Assembly (NCBI GenBank): GCA_965221595.1
Contig: OZ244900.1
Location: forward strand, 3,576,982-3,640,981
Length of the DNA stretch: 64,000 bases
Source of the DNA: Vicinamibacterales bacterium
Lineage (GTDB): Bacteria; Acidobacteriota; Vicinamibacteria; Vicinamibacterales; UBA8438
Reading direction: 5' to 3'
The notes beneath the pieces are model-generated. The model made no database searches and was not told the DNA's origin. It saw only the letters and a program-made list of their open reading frames with translations. This document shows, in pieces, positions 19,029 to 32,667 of the stretch. Within the stretch, counting starts at the first letter, position 1, and each line of letters opens with the position of its first letter. Made by a program: the position numbers and the translations under genes.

Positions 19029-19043
19029 TGAGATTCGATCTCA
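19029..19043. promoter_or_regulatory. palindromic operator candidate O1: TGAGAT-tcga-TCTCA
   Basis: Perfect inverted repeat TGAGA-N5-TCTCA, centred about 52 bp upstream of the predicted TSS of the porin operon. Confidence 0.45.
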
Positions 19044-19051
19044 ATCCGTTC

Positions 19052-19081
19052 TTGACCGACCGATCCGGTCGGACATATAGT
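19052..19081 (+). promoter_or_regulatory. sigma70-like promoter candidate for the porin/FMN/ApbE operon
   Basis: TTGACC (19052-57), an 18-nt spacer, then TATAGT (19076-81). The spacer itself is a hairpin (gaccgaccg-atc-cggtcggac). Confidence 0.45.
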
Positions 19082-19094
19082 TCCCCGTTGGAGT

Positions 19095-19109
19095 TGAGAT
19101 CAAGTCTCA
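19095..19109. promoter_or_regulatory. palindromic operator candidate O2: TGAGAT-caag-TCTCA
   Basis: Same motif as O1, with centres 66 bp apart. It lies just downstream of the predicted TSS. A further TCTCA occurs at 19117-21. Confidence 0.45.
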
Positions 19110-19123
19110 ATACTGGTCTCACC

Positions 19124-19162
19124 AAAGAAAAGGCCCGCCGGTGGTGACGCACCGGACGGGCC
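19124..19162 (-). terminator. rho-independent terminator (minus strand)
   Basis: Minus-strand sequence GGCCCGTCCGGTG-cgtcac-CACCGGCGGGCC forms 12 bp with one bulge, followed by TTTTCTTTGG. Confidence 0.6.
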
Positions 19163-19222
19163 GGCTGAACGCCCGGCCGCCGCACGCTGACTGCCTGCGC
19201 CAGGCGCCAGACGCGTTCAACG
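19124..19222 (-). ncRNA. candidate ~100-nt sRNA, antisense to the predicted 5' leader of the porin operon
   Basis: Minus-strand promoter: TTGCGC (19257-19252), 17 nt, TACAAT (19234-19229). Minus-strand intrinsic terminator at 19162-19124. No ORF lies between them. Confidence 0.35.
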
Positions 19223-19283
19223 CTCCTCATTGTAGGAGTCGACGTCATGGCGCGCAACACCGGGCCATCACCCGGGAGGGGTC

Positions 19284-20654
19284 ATGCCGTCGATGTCCCG
19301 TTACGCGCTGTTCGTCTTCATGGTGCCCGTTCTCGCCAGCGCCGCGCCTGTCGGAGCCGTGCCGCAGGACGGTGGTTCGGGTCCCGCCGAGTCGGGGCCG
19401 GCCGCCGGGCTGGCACCGGTCGCCGAGGGCAGCGGGGAATCGGAATCGGCCCTGGCACCGCCGCCGACGGGCGGTGAGCAGGCGACTGACATCGAGGAAC
19501 TCGAGCGGCGCATCGAGCTGCTCGCCGAGGAGGTCGAGCGGCTGCGCAGCGGCGAGCCCGAAATCGACCTGACCGACGACCGGACCCGCGCGCTCGGCCT
19601 CGCCCCGTCGGCGGCCGCCGCCTACCGCTCCGGCACCGGCGTGTCGATCGCCGGCTACGGTGAGATGCTCTATGAGAACTTTGCGTCGGGCACGACCTCC
19701 CGATTCGACTACCTGAGAGCCATCCTCTACGCAGGCTATCGCTTCAACGACAAGTTCCTCTTCAACTCCGAGATCGAGGTCGAGCATGCCAAAGAGATCT
19801 TCATGGAGTTCGCCTACGTCGACTACCTCGCCACCGACAACTTCGGCCTCCGCGCCGGCCTGCTCATGATGCCCATGGGACTGGTCAACGAGTTCCACGA
19901 GCCGACCGTCTTCATGGGCGCCGAGCGACCGGTCACCGAGCAGGTCATCATCCCGACGACCTGGCGCGAGAACGGCGGCGGCGTCTATTACGCCGGCGAC
20001 ACCGTGGCCGTCCGTGCCTACGTCGTCAACGGACTCGACGGCGCCAGGTTCTCCGCGAGCGGCGTGCGCGGCGGGCGCCAGAAGGGCGGCCAAGCCAAGG
20101 CTACCGACATGGCCTTCACCGGCCGCGTCGACATCACCCCCACCCCGGGCGTCTTCGTCGGCGCCAGCTTCTACACGGGCGGCTCCGGCCAGGGCGAGAT
20201 TGTCGTCGACGAGATCCCGTACGGCATCCGCACCTCCATCTTCGACGTCCACGCCCAGGCCCAGGTCCGTGGCTTCGACATCCGCGGCCTTTTCGCGCAG
20301 GCCCACCTGGCCGACACCGCGCGCCTCAATCAGTTCCTCGGCCTGACCGGCTCGAGCGGCGTCGGCGAGACGCTGCGCGGCGGTTACGTGCAGTTCGGCT
20401 ACGACGTTCTCTCGCAGGTCGATGCCGCCGGCGTCGGTCTCTCCCCCTACATCCGCTACGAGCGGGTCGACACACAGGCCGCCGTCGTTGCCGGCTTCAC
20501 CCGCAGCCCGTCGCAGAACAACGCCTACACGACCTTCGGCGTCGAACTCAAGCCGATCCCGAACATCGCCGTCAAGATCGACTACATGTGGGTCGACAAC
20601 GCCGTCGAGAGCGGCGTCGACCAGTTCAACGTCAACGTCGGCTACGCATTCTAG
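19284..20654 (+). CDS. outer-membrane porin-like beta-barrel with an N-terminal coiled-coil segment
   Basis: 456 aa with a GGGAGGGG SD and a signal peptide. It has the coiled segment TDIEELERRIELLAEEVERLRS and alternating beta-strand sequence ending ...FNVNVGYAF. Confidence 0.7.
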   Translation: MPSMSRYALFVFMVPVLASAAPVGAVPQDGGSGPAESGPAAGLAPVAEGSGESESALAPPPTGGEQATDIEELERRIELLAEEVERLRSGEPEIDLTDDRTRALGLAPSAAAAYRSGTGVSIAGYGEMLYENFASGTTSRFDYLRAILYAGYRFNDKFLFNSEIEVEHAKEIFMEFAYVDYLATDNFGLRAGLLMMPMGLVNEFHEPTVFMGAERPVTEQVIIPTTWRENGGGVYYAGDTVAVRAYVVNGLDGARFSASGVRGGRQKGGQAKATDMAFTGRVDITPTPGVFVGASFYTGGSGQGEIVVDEIPYGIRTSIFDVHAQAQVRGFDIRGLFAQAHLADTARLNQFLGLTGSSGVGETLRGGYVQFGYDVLSQVDAAGVGLSPYIRYERVDTQAAVVAGFTRSPSQNNAYTTFGVELKPIPNIAVKIDYMWVDNAVESGVDQFNVNVGYAF

Positions 20655-20671
20655 GGGGCATCGCAGCGGTC

Positions 20672-21247
20672 ATGAGGCACGGGATGCGCGGGACGATGGC
20701 GCGGCAGGCCGCGGCGGGCTTGCTGGCCGCGGGCGTGCTGGCTGTCGAGACGGCGTCGGCGCAGTCCGGCCTCGTGCGGCGCGAGGAAGCGCTCGCGGCT
20801 GTCTTCCCCGGCGCCACGATCGCCGCCGACCGCGTCTATCTGACGGCAACCCAGGCGCGGCGCATTGCCGAGCTGTCCGGCGACGATCTGCACACGCAGA
20901 TCTACGCCCGCTACGTGGCCCGGCGCGACGGCGTCGTCGTCGGCCGGGCGTACGTCGACACCCACGTCGTCCGAACCAAGCGCGAGAGCCTGCTCATCTC
21001 GCTGGACGCGCACGGCCGCGTGCGGCGCATCGACGTGACCGCGTTCCTCGAGCCCGCCGAGTACCTGCCGCCGGTGCGGTGGATCGAGCAGTACCACGAG
21101 CGGTCGCTGAGCGACGATCTCGCGATCATGCGGGCCATCCGCCCCATCGCCGGAGCCACGTTGACGACCCGGGCCGTCAACGCCGCAGTGCGCCGGGTGC
21201 TGGCGCTCGACCAGGTGCTGAAGGGCGACGGCTGGCCTGCCCTATGA
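20672..21247 (+). CDS. periplasmic FMN-binding (FMN_bind) domain protein
   Basis: Part of ORF 20588..21247 with a signal peptide. The segment IAGATLTTRAV matches the GAT(S/T) flavinylation motif used by ApbE on NqrC/RnfG-type domains. Confidence 0.7.
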   Translation: MRHGMRGTMARQAAAGLLAAGVLAVETASAQSGLVRREEALAAVFPGATIAADRVYLTATQARRIAELSGDDLHTQIYARYVARRDGVVVGRAYVDTHVVRTKRESLLISLDAHGRVRRIDVTAFLEPAEYLPPVRWIEQYHERSLSDDLAIMRAIRPIAGATLTTRAVNAAVRRVLALDQVLKGDGWPAL

Positions 21248-21732
21248 CCTGGTGGGAGCGCCGCGGTTTCAACGCGTCCTGCGTCGTGGTCGGCGCGACC
21301 GGCTTCGCGTACTGGTACATGAAGTACGTCCTCGTCACGGACGACCCGTTCGCGATCATCAACCACCCCTGGCAGCCGGCGATGCTGTCGATCCACCTGG
21401 TGGCGGCGACGCCGTTCGTCGCGTTCTTCGGCATGCTGTTCCGGTCGCATTCGTTCGGGAAGATCCGCTCGGCGCAACCGGCTAACCGGCGGAGCGGATG
21501 GACATCGCTGCTCGGCTTCGCCGCAATGGCCCTCAGCGGCTACTTCATCCAGGTGACGTCGTCGCCCGCGCTCATCACCGCCTGGATCTGGATCCACGTA
21601 GCCACCGGCACCCTGTTCGTCATCGGCTACGGCGTCCATCTCGTCAACCGCTGGCGGATCGGGAAGCGCCCTGCCCGGCGGGTTGCCCCGACACCGGCCG
21701 CGTTGCCCGGAGCGGCGCGCCTCGCGCCATGA
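21244..21732 (+). CDS. small 4-TM membrane protein with conserved-looking TM histidines (DUF4405-like, possible b-heme carrier)
   Basis: MTWWERRGFNASCVVVGATGFAYWYM... has four hydrophobic helices. Histidines occur in or near helices (INHPW, SIHLV, WIHVA, GVHLV). An ATGA start/stop overlap with the upstream gene indicates translational coupling. Confidence 0.65.
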   Translation: MTWWERRGFNASCVVVGATGFAYWYMKYVLVTDDPFAIINHPWQPAMLSIHLVAATPFVAFFGMLFRSHSFGKIRSAQPANRRSGWTSLLGFAAMALSGYFIQVTSSPALITAWIWIHVATGTLFVIGYGVHLVNRWRIGKRPARRVAPTPAALPGAARLAP

Positions 21733-22742
21733 AGGCGGTCGCCGCGGTCGCCAGCGTGTTCTGCCTTGCCGCGTTCGCGCAGCCGGCCGCTCCCGTGCGC
21801 GTCGAGCGCACGGTCTTCCTTATGGGCACCGCGGCCACCCTGGTCGCCGAGGCTTTCGACCGCGCAACCGGACTCGAGTACCTGGAGCGGATGGTGCGCA
21901 TCATGGAAGCCACCGAGGCGGAGCTCAGCACCTGGCGGGACGACACCGGCCTGAGCCGGCTGAACCGCCAGCCGCTCGGCGTGCCCCGTGCGGTGTCGCC
22001 GTCCGTGTGCGGCCTGCTCGACCGCCTCGCGGCGTGGCAGCAGGCTACCGCCGGCGCCTTCGATCCGGCCGTGGGGCGCCTCGTAGAAGCGTGGGGACTG
22101 CGCGCGATCGGCCGCCGCCCCGGCACCGCGGCACTCGCGAGCGCTAGGGCGCGCACCGGCCTGCAGCACCTGACGATCGATGCCGCCGCGTGCACGGTTG
22201 TCCGGCGCGCCGACGTCACGCTCGACGCCGGCGCATTCGGCAAGGGCGAGGCGCTCGACCGCGTGCGCGACGGCCTGGGCGGCCGGCGCGGCGCCTGGCT
22301 CATCGATTTCGGCGGACAGGTAGCGGTCGCGGGCGAACGGTCCGCCGGCGCCTGGCCGGTGGCCATTGCACACCCGGAGCGGCGCGCGGTGCCCGTCGCC
22401 GAGCTGCGGCTCGCCGCGGGCTCGCTGGCCACCAGCGGCGGCTCGGAGCGGAACCTCACGCTCGACGGCGGTGAGGGCATCGGCCACGTCCTCGATCCGC
22501 GCACCGGCGCGCCGGTCGGTCGACGCGGCTCGGTCGTGGTCTGGCATCGGGACGCCTTCGCGGCCGACGTCCTGTCCACGGCGCTCCACGTGATGGGACC
22601 CGACGGCGGGCTGCCCTGGGCCGCAGAGCGCGGCATCGCGGCCTGCTTCGTGCTGCCGGGCGCTGCGCCCGACGAGGTTGCGTTCCGGGCGACGCCGGCC
22701 TTCGAGAGACGCTTCGCGTTGCCGGCACCGGCGGGGCGATAG
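21729..22742 (+). CDS. apbE: FAD:protein FMN transferase (ApbE family)
   Basis: MKAVAAVASVFCLAAFAQ... then RTVFLMGT...STWRDDTGLSRLN...FDPAVG...LDAGAFGKGEALD...TSGGSER are typical of ApbE. The start overlaps the upstream stop as ATGA. Confidence 0.9.
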   Translation: MKAVAAVASVFCLAAFAQPAAPVRVERTVFLMGTAATLVAEAFDRATGLEYLERMVRIMEATEAELSTWRDDTGLSRLNRQPLGVPRAVSPSVCGLLDRLAAWQQATAGAFDPAVGRLVEAWGLRAIGRRPGTAALASARARTGLQHLTIDAAACTVVRRADVTLDAGAFGKGEALDRVRDGLGGRRGAWLIDFGGQVAVAGERSAGAWPVAIAHPERRAVPVAELRLAAGSLATSGGSERNLTLDGGEGIGHVLDPRTGAPVGRRGSVVVWHRDAFAADVLSTALHVMGPDGGLPWAAERGIAACFVLPGAAPDEVAFRATPAFERRFALPAPAGR

Positions 22743-25712: not shown

Positions 25713-25829
25713 ATGTCGGTATGATGCGCACGAGACTACGCAGTGCAACCGCGCGGACTCCTGCAGGGTTCGCCGGGCGTCAGGCGGAGCCGCGCGGCGA
25801 AGATTGGCGGTTCTGGCTGTGAGGTGGCC

Positions 25830-26615
25830 ATGTTCAGGCTCTTGGCGGTGACTGTGCTCGTCGCGGCGACGGTGGCAGCCGCCGGCGCGCAGGAAGCCGA
25901 GAATCCGTTCACCGCCGGCCCCGACCGGCGTATGGGCGAAACCAGCTTCCGAGTGCACTGCACGTTGTGCCATGGCTACGACGCAAGGGGCGGCGGGGAA
26001 ACCAACGGCCCCGACCTCACGACCGGGCGGTTCCGGCGTACCAGCACCCTGGCGGGACTCTTCGACGTGATCCGCAACGGCGTCCCGGGCACCGCCATGC
26101 TCGGAATCAACCCTGACGTGGCGGATCGCGTAGTCTGGCAGATCATCACCTACCTCGACTCGCTGACCCCGAACCCCACGGATGCGGAGCTGCCGGGCGA
26201 CGTGGGCGCCGGACGCGCCCTGTTCGCCGGCAAGGGCAACTGCGCGACCTGTCACATGGTGGACGGCACCGGCGGGCGGCTGGGCCCGGATCTTTCCCGG
26301 ATCGGGGAGCGGCGTGATCCCGACGAGCTGCGGGCCGACCTGCTGGATCCGGGCGCGGAGGTAGCGCCGCGCTGGTGGACGATGACCGTCACGCGCCCTG
26401 ACGGCTCGGTCGTCGAAGGGCTCAGAATGAGCGAGGACACCTTCACGCTGCGCCTGATCGACGCCGACGAGCAGTTGTGGTCGTTCTCCAAAGGTGCGCT
26501 GCAGTCGTTCGAACGCGTCCGCACGTCCTCGATGCCGGGCGCCGGCGGCACGCTCACGGACGCCGAGGTGGACGACCTGATCGCGTACCTGTTCTCGCTG
26601 CGGAAGGAGAGCTGA
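25830..26615 (+). CDS. di-heme c-type cytochrome
   Basis: Part of ORF 25743..26615. ATG 25830 has a GAGGTGG SD and is followed by a signal peptide. Two CxxCH motifs are present (CTLCHG and CATCHM). Confidence 0.85.
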   Translation: MFRLLAVTVLVAATVAAAGAQEAENPFTAGPDRRMGETSFRVHCTLCHGYDARGGGETNGPDLTTGRFRRTSTLAGLFDVIRNGVPGTAMLGINPDVADRVVWQIITYLDSLTPNPTDAELPGDVGAGRALFAGKGNCATCHMVDGTGGRLGPDLSRIGERRDPDELRADLLDPGAEVAPRWWTMTVTRPDGSVVEGLRMSEDTFTLRLIDADEQLWSFSKGALQSFERVRTSSMPGAGGTLTDAEVDDLIAYLFSLRKES

Positions 26616-26618
26616 CTC

Positions 26619-28244
26619 ATGAAGCGTTTGGCGATGGTCGCGGTGCTGGCCGGCTGCGCGCAGGCGGCCAGCGGCCAGGAGCCTGCGTCCGGCGCGGCAC
26701 CGTCGTTCTCGCCCGTGACCTGGGAGCGGCTGCTCGACGCGGCGGACGAACCCCACAACTGGCTGATGTACTCCGGCACGTTCAGCAGCCAGCGCTTCAG
26801 CCGACTCGACCAGATAAACGCAGGCAACGCAGGCAATCTCAAGTTGAAGTGGGCCTATCAGATTCCCGTGATCGACCGGGCGGAGACCACCCCGCTCGTC
26901 GTCGACGGCATCATGTTCGTCACGGAGGCGCCCAGCAATCTCGCGGCGATCGATGCGGCCACGGGTGGCGTGTACTGGCGCTACGAGCACGAGCTCCCCG
27001 ACGATCTCCGCATCTGCTGCGGCCGCAACAACCGCGGCGTGGCCGTGCTCGGCAATACGCTGTTCATGAGCACGCTGGACGCACACCTGGTGGCGATTGA
27101 CGCGCGCAGCGGCAACCTCGTCTGGAACACCGAAGTGGCGGAGCATTCGCGGGGCTACAGCAAGACGGCGGCGCCGCTCATCGTGAAGGACAGGGTGGTG
27201 ACCGGCATCGCGGGCGGCGAGTTCGGCATCCGCGGATTCCTCGACTCGTACGACGCCGAGTCCGGTGCACGCGAGTGGCGCACCTACACGATTCCCGGCC
27301 CGGACCATCCGGATAACCGGAGCTGGTCCGGCGATTCCTGGCGTACCGGCGGGTCGCCGACCTGGATCACCGGCTCGTACGATCCGGAGCTCGACCTCGT
27401 CTATTGGGGCACCGGCAACCCCGGACCCGACTACAACGGCGAGATGCGGCTGGGCGACAACCTGTACTCCGACTCAGTGCTCGCCCTCGACGGCGACACC
27501 GGCGAGATGTCCTGGTATTTCCAGTTCACGCCCCACGACGTCCACGACTGGGACGCGATCCAGATCCCGATCCTCGCCGACATCGAGTTCGACGGCCGGC
27601 CGCGCAAGGCCATGCTGTGGGCCAACCGCAACGCCTTCTTCTACGTGCTCGACCGCACGACGGGCGAGTTCCTGCTCGGCGAGCCGTTCGCCCGGCAGAC
27701 CTGGGCCGAGCGGATCGACGACCAGGGCCGGCCGGTGCGGCTGCCCGACACGTTTCCGACGGAGGACGGCACGGTGGTCTCGCCTTCCGTCCTGGGCGGC
27801 ACCAACTGGTGGTCCCCCGCGTACAGCCCCCGCACCGGGCTCTTCTACGTGAACGCCTTCGACGGCGAGGCGGAGTACTTCGTTCGCGAGGACGACTACC
27901 GGGCGGGCGTCCGCTTCATCGGGGGCGGGCAGCAGCAGGTATCGGCGATCGACAACTACGTCAACGCGATTCGGGCCATCGACCCGGCCACCGGCGAGCG
28001 GCGCTGGGAGTTCCGCATCACGCCGCAGTCGCGGGCCGGCGTCCTCGCCACGGCGGGCGATGTAGTCTTCAGCGGCGGCGTCGACGGCTACTTCTTCGCC
28101 CTCGACGCCGAGACCGGCGAGGAGCTGTGGCACATCCAGTTGGGCGCGCTCGTGCAGGCCGCGCCCATCACCTACGCCGTGAACGGGCGGCAGCAGGTCA
28201 CTATTGCCGCGGGCAACGTGGTGTACACGTTCGGTCTGGACTGA
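26619..28244 (+). CDS. PQQ-dependent alcohol dehydrogenase (methanol/ethanol family)
   Basis: 541 aa with a signal peptide. It has the vicinal disulfide CCG (DLRICCGRNN), the motif GGT.W, and HDVHDWD around the catalytic Asp. It starts 4 nt after the cytochrome c stop. Confidence 0.9.
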   Translation: MKRLAMVAVLAGCAQAASGQEPASGAAPSFSPVTWERLLDAADEPHNWLMYSGTFSSQRFSRLDQINAGNAGNLKLKWAYQIPVIDRAETTPLVVDGIMFVTEAPSNLAAIDAATGGVYWRYEHELPDDLRICCGRNNRGVAVLGNTLFMSTLDAHLVAIDARSGNLVWNTEVAEHSRGYSKTAAPLIVKDRVVTGIAGGEFGIRGFLDSYDAESGAREWRTYTIPGPDHPDNRSWSGDSWRTGGSPTWITGSYDPELDLVYWGTGNPGPDYNGEMRLGDNLYSDSVLALDGDTGEMSWYFQFTPHDVHDWDAIQIPILADIEFDGRPRKAMLWANRNAFFYVLDRTTGEFLLGEPFARQTWAERIDDQGRPVRLPDTFPTEDGTVVSPSVLGGTNWWSPAYSPRTGLFYVNAFDGEAEYFVREDDYRAGVRFIGGGQQQVSAIDNYVNAIRAIDPATGERRWEFRITPQSRAGVLATAGDVVFSGGVDGYFFALDAETGEELWHIQLGALVQAAPITYAVNGRQQVTIAAGNVVYTFGLD

Positions 28245-32633: not shown

Positions 32634-32667
32634 TGATATTGCGTCTCAGTTACAGAAACGCTAGGAT
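32634..32667 (+). promoter_or_regulatory. bfd promoter candidate with an overlapping TGATAT-tgcg-TCTCA box (Fur-box-like)
   Basis: The box spans 32634-32648. The promoter is TTGCGT (32639-44), 17 nt, TAGGAT (32662-67). ATG 32677 follows without an SD. Confidence 0.4.

Follow-up and report, generated by a model that had tools for sequence, protein, structure and literature searches.

What does a compact operon encoding a porin-like protein, a flavin mononucleotide (FMN)-binding protein, a small histidine-bearing membrane protein and a flavin transferase do in the cell envelope of an acidobacterium? This question is raised by a 64,000-nucleotide stretch of the genome of a Vicinamibacterales bacterium (GenBank assembly GCA_965221595.1, contig OZ244900.1, positions 3,576,982 to 3,640,981 of the forward strand; hereafter the window, in whose own numbering positions are given), in which four genes, here called G1 to G4, follow one another on the same strand:

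19284-20654, + strand: G1, an open reading frame (ORF) of 456 amino acids (aa), a putative outer-membrane porin-like beta-barrel (AlphaFold 2 (AF2) model and Foldseek).
20672-21247, + strand: G2, 191 aa counted from its ATG (with the reading frame open as far back as a GTG at 20588), a predicted periplasmic RnfG/NqrC-like FMN-binding protein with a signal peptide (profile match and AGA[T/S] site).
21244-21732, + strand: G3, an ORF of 162 aa, a putative di-haem b cytochrome of the inner membrane with four transmembrane (TM) helices (invariant histidines and AF2 helices).
21729-22742, + strand: G4, an ORF of 337 aa, a predicted periplasmic ApbE FAD:protein FMN transferase (Pfam PF02424 and NCBIfam).

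A preliminary description, made from the letters of the window alone, had presented these genes as tightly packed, and both its coordinates and its two gene overlaps were confirmed: G1 and G2 are separated by 17 nt, and ATGA start/stop overlaps join G2 to G3 at 21244 (ccctATGAcc) and G3 to G4 at 21729 (cgccATGAag), with a Shine-Dalgarno sequence, GGGAGG, lying 5' of the G1 ATG. The four-gene operon is real, widely conserved and uncharacterised. From its sequence we propose, with moderate confidence, that it encodes a metal-repressed, envelope-spanning module that sends reducing power to the periplasm for the assimilation of a redox-active metal, most likely iron.

The conservation of the gene set was assessed in two scans. 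When a G3 alignment was run against one genome per GTDB species, we recovered 80 loci, nearly all of them in Vicinamibacterales, with a few in metagenome-assembled genomes (MAGs) of Gemmatimonadota and Latescibacterota, and the order G1-G2-G3-ApbE was found in all 73 of the loci that had enough flanking sequence. A metagenome scan with a distant G3 subgroup (alignment A5, ~40% identical to the window G3) yielded 80 further loci, 26 of which had enough flank; here G2 was present in 26/26, G1 in 24/26, ApbE in 25/26 and all four genes in 23/26, and in 22 distant loci ApbE was the 5'-most gene (ApbE-G1-G2-G3). Every named member of this subgroup carries the annotation 'hypothetical'; these members come from Longimicrobiales, Polarisedimenticolia, Acidobacteriota and a single Gammaproteobacteria MAG. 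The neighbourhood is therefore kept in two gene orders, in Acidobacteriota and in MAGs of Gemmatimonadota and Latescibacterota. When the flanking ORFs were clustered all against all, a comparison made noisy by ORFs open in all frames at 70% GC, no other neighbour family was common to both groups, and the module thus appears to be self-contained. In two marine loci, L084 (3960-5252) and L091, the porin gene is swapped for that of a 430-aa lipoprotein resembling periplasmic solute-binding proteins, with G2-G3-ApbE retained, so that the invariant core is G2-G3-ApbE and the porin its usual partner. A gene for an NfuA-like Fe-S carrier lies just upstream of the lipoprotein gene in these loci. Elsewhere, in L016 (4200-5400), G1 and G2 are separated by an insert of ~1.3 kb that has no clear gene on the + strand and may represent a mobile element or an antisense gene.

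Turning to the individual products, the sequence of G4 identifies it unambiguously as an ApbE, as first proposed: it matches PF02424 at E=8.2e-55 (186.6 bits, against a curated cutoff of 25.6) over profile positions 1-266 of 266 and the NCBIfam ApbE model at E=3.7e-28, and its N-terminus, MKAVAAVASVFCLAAFAQP, reads as a hydrophobic export signal. G2 carries the IAGATLTT stretch that had been singled out at the outset, within which T163 (RPIAGATLT) is the predicted flavinylation site, and the protein has one flavin site in all. A profile of the G2 family built from 20 orthologs aligned end to end with RnfG (PDB 9eri_G, E=4.5e-4), placing the covalent-FMN threonine of RnfG on T163 of G2. Furthermore, the AGA[T/S] site is kept, with T or S, in 19/20 G2 homologs, and distant G2 orthologs carry precomputed matches to the Pfam FMN_bind family (PF04205). 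A few Vicinamibacterales loci have, 3' of ApbE, a divergent second G2 paralog with Ser for Thr in its site, AGASFT (L061, 7537-8106; L058; L048, 2839-3414), followed in L061 by the gene for a multi-TM membrane protein.

The third gene is the one on which the proposed electron path depends. Bis-His di-haem b proteins carry their ligand histidines on alternate helices near each face of the membrane, with glycines on the intervening helices. The AF2 model of G3 consists of four long helices (predicted local distance difference test score, pLDDT, 73). Its N-terminus, TM2-TM3 loop and C-terminus are rich in Arg and Lys, which are absent from the other two loops, and on this distribution both termini are predicted to be cytoplasmic. 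The preliminary description had reported a 162-aa, four-helix protein with histidines in or near its helices. Five histidines proved to be invariant among close homologs, and across 41 representatives of the family (25-55% identity) four of these, H51, H69, H118 and H132, together with G20 and G99, were the only invariant residues; H41, in the first periplasmic loop, is conserved in >90% of the same set. H51 and H69 lie on TM2, H118 and H132 on TM4, G20 on TM1 and G99 on TM3. When AF2 helix limits were combined with the positive-inside rule, the conserved histidines fell pairwise near each membrane face, making H51/H118 the putative haem ligands on the periplasmic side and H69/H132 those on the cytoplasmic side, a layout that fits the bis-His di-haem b pattern.

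The G3 family comprises 659 clusters at 50% identity and has no Pfam model; G3 itself has no significant relative in Pfam, NCBIfam or the PDB, and an exact look-up of the window's own G3 sequence returned no record. Among the weak Pfam matches of the 41 members, the commonest was to prokaryotic cytochrome b561 (PF01292; 7/41, best E=6.7e-7), followed by DUF4405 (4/41) and CopD (3/41). In eight of ten long family representatives, drawn from several independent 50%-identity clusters, an N-terminal G3 is fused in frame to a C-terminal ApbE (P0122, P0134, P0135, P0137, P0138, P0169, P0185 and P0260). The export signal of ApbE would then span the membrane as a fifth TM helix, following on from the cytoplasmic end of G3, an arrangement consistent with the predicted topology. 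In P0202, a Phenol_MetA_deg outer-membrane-channel domain follows G3 in place of ApbE.

The G1 polypeptide opens with a signal peptide and a low-complexity stretch; a coiled coil at ~residues 65-90 precedes the barrel, and the chain ends in Phe (...GYAF). Its AF2 model is of low confidence (mean pLDDT 55) and has ~16-18 strands (DSSP 17-18). When this model was compared with the PDB using Foldseek, it matched OmpM1 (E=1.8e-11) and also OmpT, OmpC and OprP, with E to 5e-9 and probability 1.0. Within the limits of such a model, the coiled coil and the porin-fold barrel are consistent with the coiled-coil porin that had been suggested for this gene. At the level of sequence, G1 gave no Pfam match at E<=0.1 and no NCBIfam match, and a profile search of PDB sequences returned coiled-coil noise only. 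Two of its loops, residues 197-233 and 257-271, are nearly invariant among 34 homologs (NEFHEP...ERP...WRENGGG and RGGRQKGG), which is unusual for a general porin.

A link to metal comes from the region upstream of G1, where the following elements were identified:

19029-19043, no strand: operator 1, the perfect 15-bp dyad TGAGATTCGATCTCA (0 mismatches), just upstream of the -35 element.
19052-19081, + strand: sigma-70-like promoter, TTGACC-18-TATAGT (10/12 matches, 0.2 expected by chance).
19056-19072, no strand: spacer dyad, CCGACC-N5-GGTCGG, inside the 18-bp spacer between -35 and -10.
19095-19109, no strand: operator 2, TGAGATCAAGTCTCA, ~14 bp downstream of the -10 element.
19132-19162, + strand: GC-rich hairpin, GGCCCGCCGGTG...CACCGGACGGGCC, in the 5' leader, conserved in alignment A6.

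The sigma-70-like promoter is thus flanked by operators of the form TGAGA-N5-TCTCA, one on each side, and the palindromes at 19029 and 19095, which the preliminary description had called iron-type operators, are real and resemble Fur boxes. In alignment A6, which covers 13 loci, both dyads, the -35, the -10 and the spacer dyad are invariant or nearly so, and the sequence between them drifts. The core of the spacer dyad, CGAC-N7-GTCG, is invariant in all 13; by analogy, it may be the site of a second regulator, in an arrangement that recalls MerR-type control. More widely, the dyad is found upstream of G1 in ~70/80 genome loci, mostly as a pair ~65 bp apart. Across 983 kb of related loci it was matched 161 times, and the great majority of these matches cluster directly 5' of G1. 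Among the distant loci 24 have it, with the consensus TGAGAAT-N-ATTCTCA, and there it nearly always precedes, at a short distance, whichever gene of the module comes first. The classical Fur 7-1-7 box is TGATAAT-N-ATTATCA, one symmetric position away from this consensus. On its sequence, its place at the promoter and its association with Fur-family genes, the operator is classed as of Fur-family type, with binding predicted. A reading of the dyad as a RirA-type TGA-N9-TCA site was considered, but a Fur-family regulator is preferred because the regulator gene leading the operon in six loci is of the Fur and not the Rrf2 family.

Downstream of the promoter lies a 5' leader of ~195 nt (about 19088-19283), the length of which is conserved. 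Its hairpin shows compensatory base changes in several loci and is not an obvious terminator because it has no U-tract; a second conserved block, CTCCTCATTGTAGGAG...GTCATGGCGCGCAA, is also present, and an Rfam scan of the leader matched no family. In one Vicinamibacterales subgroup (L001, 3646-5505; L049, L052, L057, L060, L063, L064 and L077), a small DUF6787 gene stands just before G1, and additional copies of the operator are found in the interval that separates it from a divergent CbiX-type chelatase gene; both genes would thereby fall within the regulon of the module. Elsewhere in the window, dyad-like matches at 32634 and 33448 have one mismatch each and lie in, or at the edge of, coding ORFs.

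The six loci with a Fur-family gene at the head of the operon are L101, L115, L151, L165, L169 and L170. Upstream of the fur-headed operons of L101, L151, L165 and L170 we found the TGAGA-N5-TCTCA dyad, whereas L115 (121) and L169 (4552, 5062) have a different Fur paralog and a variant dyad, TGCGA-N5-TCGCA, placed upstream of fur and between fur and G1. Since the different paralog goes with the different dyad, regulator and operator appear to vary together. Among four regulators tested, the best NCBIfam match was Fur for three and PerR for one. In L170, an unbroken run encodes Fur, FTR1 fused to an FtrD-like domain, FtsX, FtsX, an ABC ATPase, ApbE, G1, G2 and G3, with a perfect operator upstream of fur; no P19 or cupredoxin partner is present in this locus. 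The run resembles the P19/FTR1 iron-uptake clusters in which FMN-binding genes have been found (PMC8238504). In 7 loci ApbE is immediately preceded by the FtsX-FtsX-ABC set. The periplasmic iron role first put forward as plausible thus gains further support from the Fur genes heading six loci, the Fur-like operator and the attachment of FTR1/FtrD-like and FtsX/ABC genes. Neighbours seen in single lineages offer weaker hints of iron: a TonB-dependent receptor, a CbiX chelatase with extra operators and a chlorite-dismutase/HemQ-family gene.

These features can be assembled into a mechanism, every step of which, from the binding of haem and the flavinylation to the sense of electron flow and the choice of metal, is inferred from protein families, conservation and gene context. 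When metal is scarce, a Fur-family repressor would leave the two TGAGA-N5-TCTCA operators that bracket the promoter. G4 would then covalently attach FMN to Thr163 of exported G2, and G3 would bind two b-type haems, one through H51/H118 and one through H69/H132, and would relay electrons through the membrane to the G2-bound FMN, their source being either the quinol pool or a donor in the cytoplasm. Reduced G2 could in turn reduce Fe(III), as such or in a small chelate, after its entry by diffusion through the porin G1, and the resulting Fe(II) would be imported by a separate permease, provided in some lineages by the FTR1/FtrD-like and FtsX/ABC genes of the same operon.

A number of observations weigh against this scheme. 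The flavoprotein at its centre scores 19.2 bits against Pfam FMN_bind (PF04205), below the gathering score of 22, and over the last 24 profile positions only. The published flavinylation motif is D-x-x-[S/T]-G-A-[S/T] (PMC12052999), from which the G2 site, R-P-I-A-G-A-T, departs in two places: G2 homologs have an invariant Arg at the position of the motif Asp and an invariant Ala at that of the [S/T], with G-A-T kept. The same review reports minor effects only when the Asp of the motif is changed to Ala. A passive porin would be an unusual route for scarce Fe(III), and the spread of the module across phyla depends on the binning of MAGs. As for its regulation, the NCBIfam scores of the regulators all fall below the equivalog cutoffs, which makes their assignment within the Fur family tentative; the operator is almost entirely confined to the module and was not seen upstream of nearby TonB-dependent receptors in the same loci, which suggests a dedicated Fur paralog in place of the global iron regulator. 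The last points would also suit a version of the same electron-transfer chain that reduces another redox metal, for instance Mn(III/IV) or Cu(II), so that it can be taken up or built into cuproenzymes, or one that, controlled by a PerR- or Mur-type Fur paralog, answers oxidative stress by periplasmic repair or detoxification. Such a role could account for an operator specific to the module and not shared with a general iron regulon, and for the one regulator of four that matched PerR best; moreover, an HMA P-type ATPase and pyrroloquinoline quinone (PQQ) dehydrogenases lie near the module in some loci, and related di-haem PepSY_TM proteins are reported to be linked to copper supply for haem-copper oxidases (PMC13038864). 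We nevertheless judge it unlikely, given that the module sits within a Fur-FTR1/FtrD-like-ABC operon in L170 and beside the same ABC set in 7 loci, that the other three regulators matched Fur best, and that the conserved gene set includes no catalytic repair enzyme.

A further group of adverse observations concerns G3. Its TM2 histidines are 18 residues apart, compared with the 13-14 typical of di-haem b proteins, and it scores below the gathering thresholds of both Ni_hydr_CYTB (PF01292; 17.5 vs 30.1 bits) and DUF4405 (PF14358; 15.2 vs 26.7 bits). Foldseek comparison of its model with the PDB gave nothing significant, the best matches being unrelated helical bundles, and profiles A1 and A3 retrieved only noise from PDB sequences (LHC, rhomboid, rhodopsin). 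Nor does the window operon contain an inner-membrane metal permease. As it resembles no haem protein significantly in either sequence or structure, G3 might instead be a small, His-lined metal permease or channel that imports the Fe(II) made by G2, with the electrons of G2 coming from another source; this would supply the operon with the permease it otherwise lacks, and the weak CopD matches of three of the 41 members point the same way. Yet the two His pairs are placed towards opposite sides of the membrane, on alternate helices, the remaining helices carrying the invariant Gly residues, as expected of a bis-His di-haem protein and not of a mid-membrane metal site, and cytochrome b561 is the commonest weak match, with DUF4405 next. 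In addition, a module deprived of G3 as a conduit has no electron donor for G2, and L170 already has an FTR1 permease, so we consider a permease role for G3 improbable. Electrons might also run in the opposite sense, either from periplasmic Fe(II) through G2 and G3 to quinone, generating Fe(III) for FTR1, or outwards, with G1 and G2 forming a porin-cytochrome-like conduit for extracellular electron transfer to minerals. FTR1-type systems (Fet3/Ftr1, FtrABCD) classically couple transport to Fe(II) oxidation, which, together with the lack of a P19 or cupredoxin partner in L170, would favour the former; a barrel gene beside that of a periplasmic redox protein recalls MtrAB-type conduits and would favour the latter. 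However, flavins are poor oxidants of Fe(II) and good reductants of Fe(III) chelates, and a Fur-type repressor argues for assimilation over respiration. For an outer-membrane conduit there is the additional difficulty that G1 matches 16-strand general porins, the lumen of which is too small for a 17-kDa domain, and that G2 has a single flavin site. Oxidising or respiratory flow therefore strikes us as very improbable, and slightly more so than a permease role for G3.

How does the proposed reductive module relate to systems already described? In 2021, five classes of flavinylation-linked transmembrane electron transfer were recognised, NapH-, MsrQ-, PepSY-, DsbD- and NQR/RNF-like, several of them tied to iron assimilation, and flavinylated proteins were linked to P19/FTR1, PepSY and MsrQ iron reductase clusters (Meheust et al. 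2021, eLife, PMC8238504). More recently, haem b binding was demonstrated for DUF4405, a six-TM, four-His protein whose gene accompanies apbE and Flavodoxin_4 in Proteobacteria and Firmicutes (Huang et al. 2024, mSystems, PMC11334425). A porin is mentioned in neither paper, and our literature searches found no description of this four-gene set. The preliminary statement that the arrangement is not a characterised system therefore holds for the gene set; it does not hold for the general concept of iron reduction by ApbE, a flavoprotein and a di-haem protein, which has been published (PMC8238504, PMC11334425). A reading of the cluster as a Nos, Rnf or Nqr accessory set was rejected, as no nosZ/nosR/nosDFY, rnfABCDE or nqrABDEF genes were found in the window flanks or in 10 annotated contexts. 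None of the outcomes that the preliminary description had named as refuting its interpretation was encountered, and that interpretation is supported as far as sequence evidence goes.

The DUF4405 systems (PMC11334425) resemble the module in their four conserved histidines, in the adjacency of apbE and a gene for a flavinylated extracytosolic protein, and in their proposed role as a transmembrane conduit, and G3 gives weak matches to DUF4405 as well as to cytochrome b561. They differ in that G3 has four TM helices in ~160 aa rather than six and falls below Pfam thresholds, its partner is an RnfG-like FMN_bind protein rather than Flavodoxin_4, its hosts are Acidobacteriota and Gemmatimonadota rather than Proteobacteria and Firmicutes, and the module adds a dedicated porin and a Fur-type operator. 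With the PepSY-like/MsrQ-like and P19/FTR1 clusters (PMC8238504) the module shares ApbE and, by prediction, the flavinylation of a periplasmic protein, a membrane protein with two haems and Fur regulation; in the L170 operon with its FTR1 it also shares the co-localisation with iron transporters that in those clusters extends to VIT1, TonB receptors and FTR1. However, G3 contains none of PF03929, PF16357 and PF01794, and the outer-membrane partner of the module is a porin, not a TonB-dependent receptor.

Similar comparisons can be made for the other two partners. G2 aligns over its full length with RnfG (9eri_G), including the covalent-FMN threonine, but no RnfABCDE or NqrABDEF genes accompany the module, and the G2 site is AGAT rather than [S/T]GA[S/T]; G2 is also predicted to be a soluble, exported protein with a cleavable signal peptide, whereas RnfG and NqrC are membrane-anchored complex subunits. 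OmpM1 of Veillonella (PDB 8bym), OmpC and OprP are the best structural matches of the G1 model, and OmpM1, like G1, has an N-terminal coiled coil ahead of its barrel. Identity to these porins is only ~12-15%, with no sequence similarity; G1 lacks an SLH domain, has the two near-invariant loops and sits in a redox operon. DUF3570 (PMC8238504) is likewise an outer-membrane-type protein, of ~420 aa, found in an apbE cluster. G1 was nonetheless rejected as a DUF3570-like flavinylated barrel, since it has neither a DUF3570 profile match nor a conserved [S/T]GA[S/T] motif, of which the DUF3570 type has two; the only similar sequence among its homologs, TGSS, occurs in 9/34 and is not conserved.

The surroundings of the operon in the window, which has a G+C content of ~70%, are formed by a divergent PAP2-family gene upstream and a convergent proC downstream, and the flanks as a whole code for PAP2, a glyoxalase, TreT (trehalose synthase), NhaC, ProC, YdjM, a cytochrome c and a PQQ dehydrogenase. 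The last two are a di-haem c-type cytochrome gene with a gene for a PQQ-dependent dehydrogenase directly after it (25743-28244). In 25 related genome loci a PQQ dehydrogenase is encoded no more than ~4 kb from the module, a proximity that probably reflects lineage synteny rather than a functional link. The lineage-specific synteny around the module in general (PAP2, a 12-TM protein, NhaC, PQQ dehydrogenase and a TonB receptor) was judged to be uninformative.

Compared with the systems described so far, what is new here is the four-TM cytochrome-like family, the sub-threshold FMN_bind protein, the dedicated porin and the conserved Fur-type operator. More tentatively, and at somewhat less than an even chance, we suggest that a minimal four-TM di-haem b protein, a cryptic FMN_bind protein and a specialised porin make up a sixth class of flavinylation-linked conduit, which would carry out TonB-independent reductive uptake of iron (or manganese) under the control of a Fur paralog, would be a hallmark of Acidobacteriota and Gemmatimonadota that abound in soil and sea but are poorly cultured, and would use the conserved loops of G1 as a metal-selective site or as a dock for the flavoprotein. 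The 2021 survey left a residue of genomes with 'orphan' apbE genes (PMC8238504). As G2 escapes the Pfam threshold, the ApbE genes of this module would have counted among them, and the module would explain some of these orphans. If the proposal is true, G3 would be a minimal, four-helix flavinylation-associated cytochrome, and G1 the first dedicated porin, as opposed to a TonB-dependent receptor, to be tied to a periplasmic flavin reductase. For Vicinamibacteria and Longimicrobiales, which are common in soil and known mostly from MAGs, the module offers a testable hypothesis of iron acquisition, and its well-defined, deeply conserved operator, alongside which some genomes carry a cognate Fur-family gene, provides an entry to metal regulation in these phyla.

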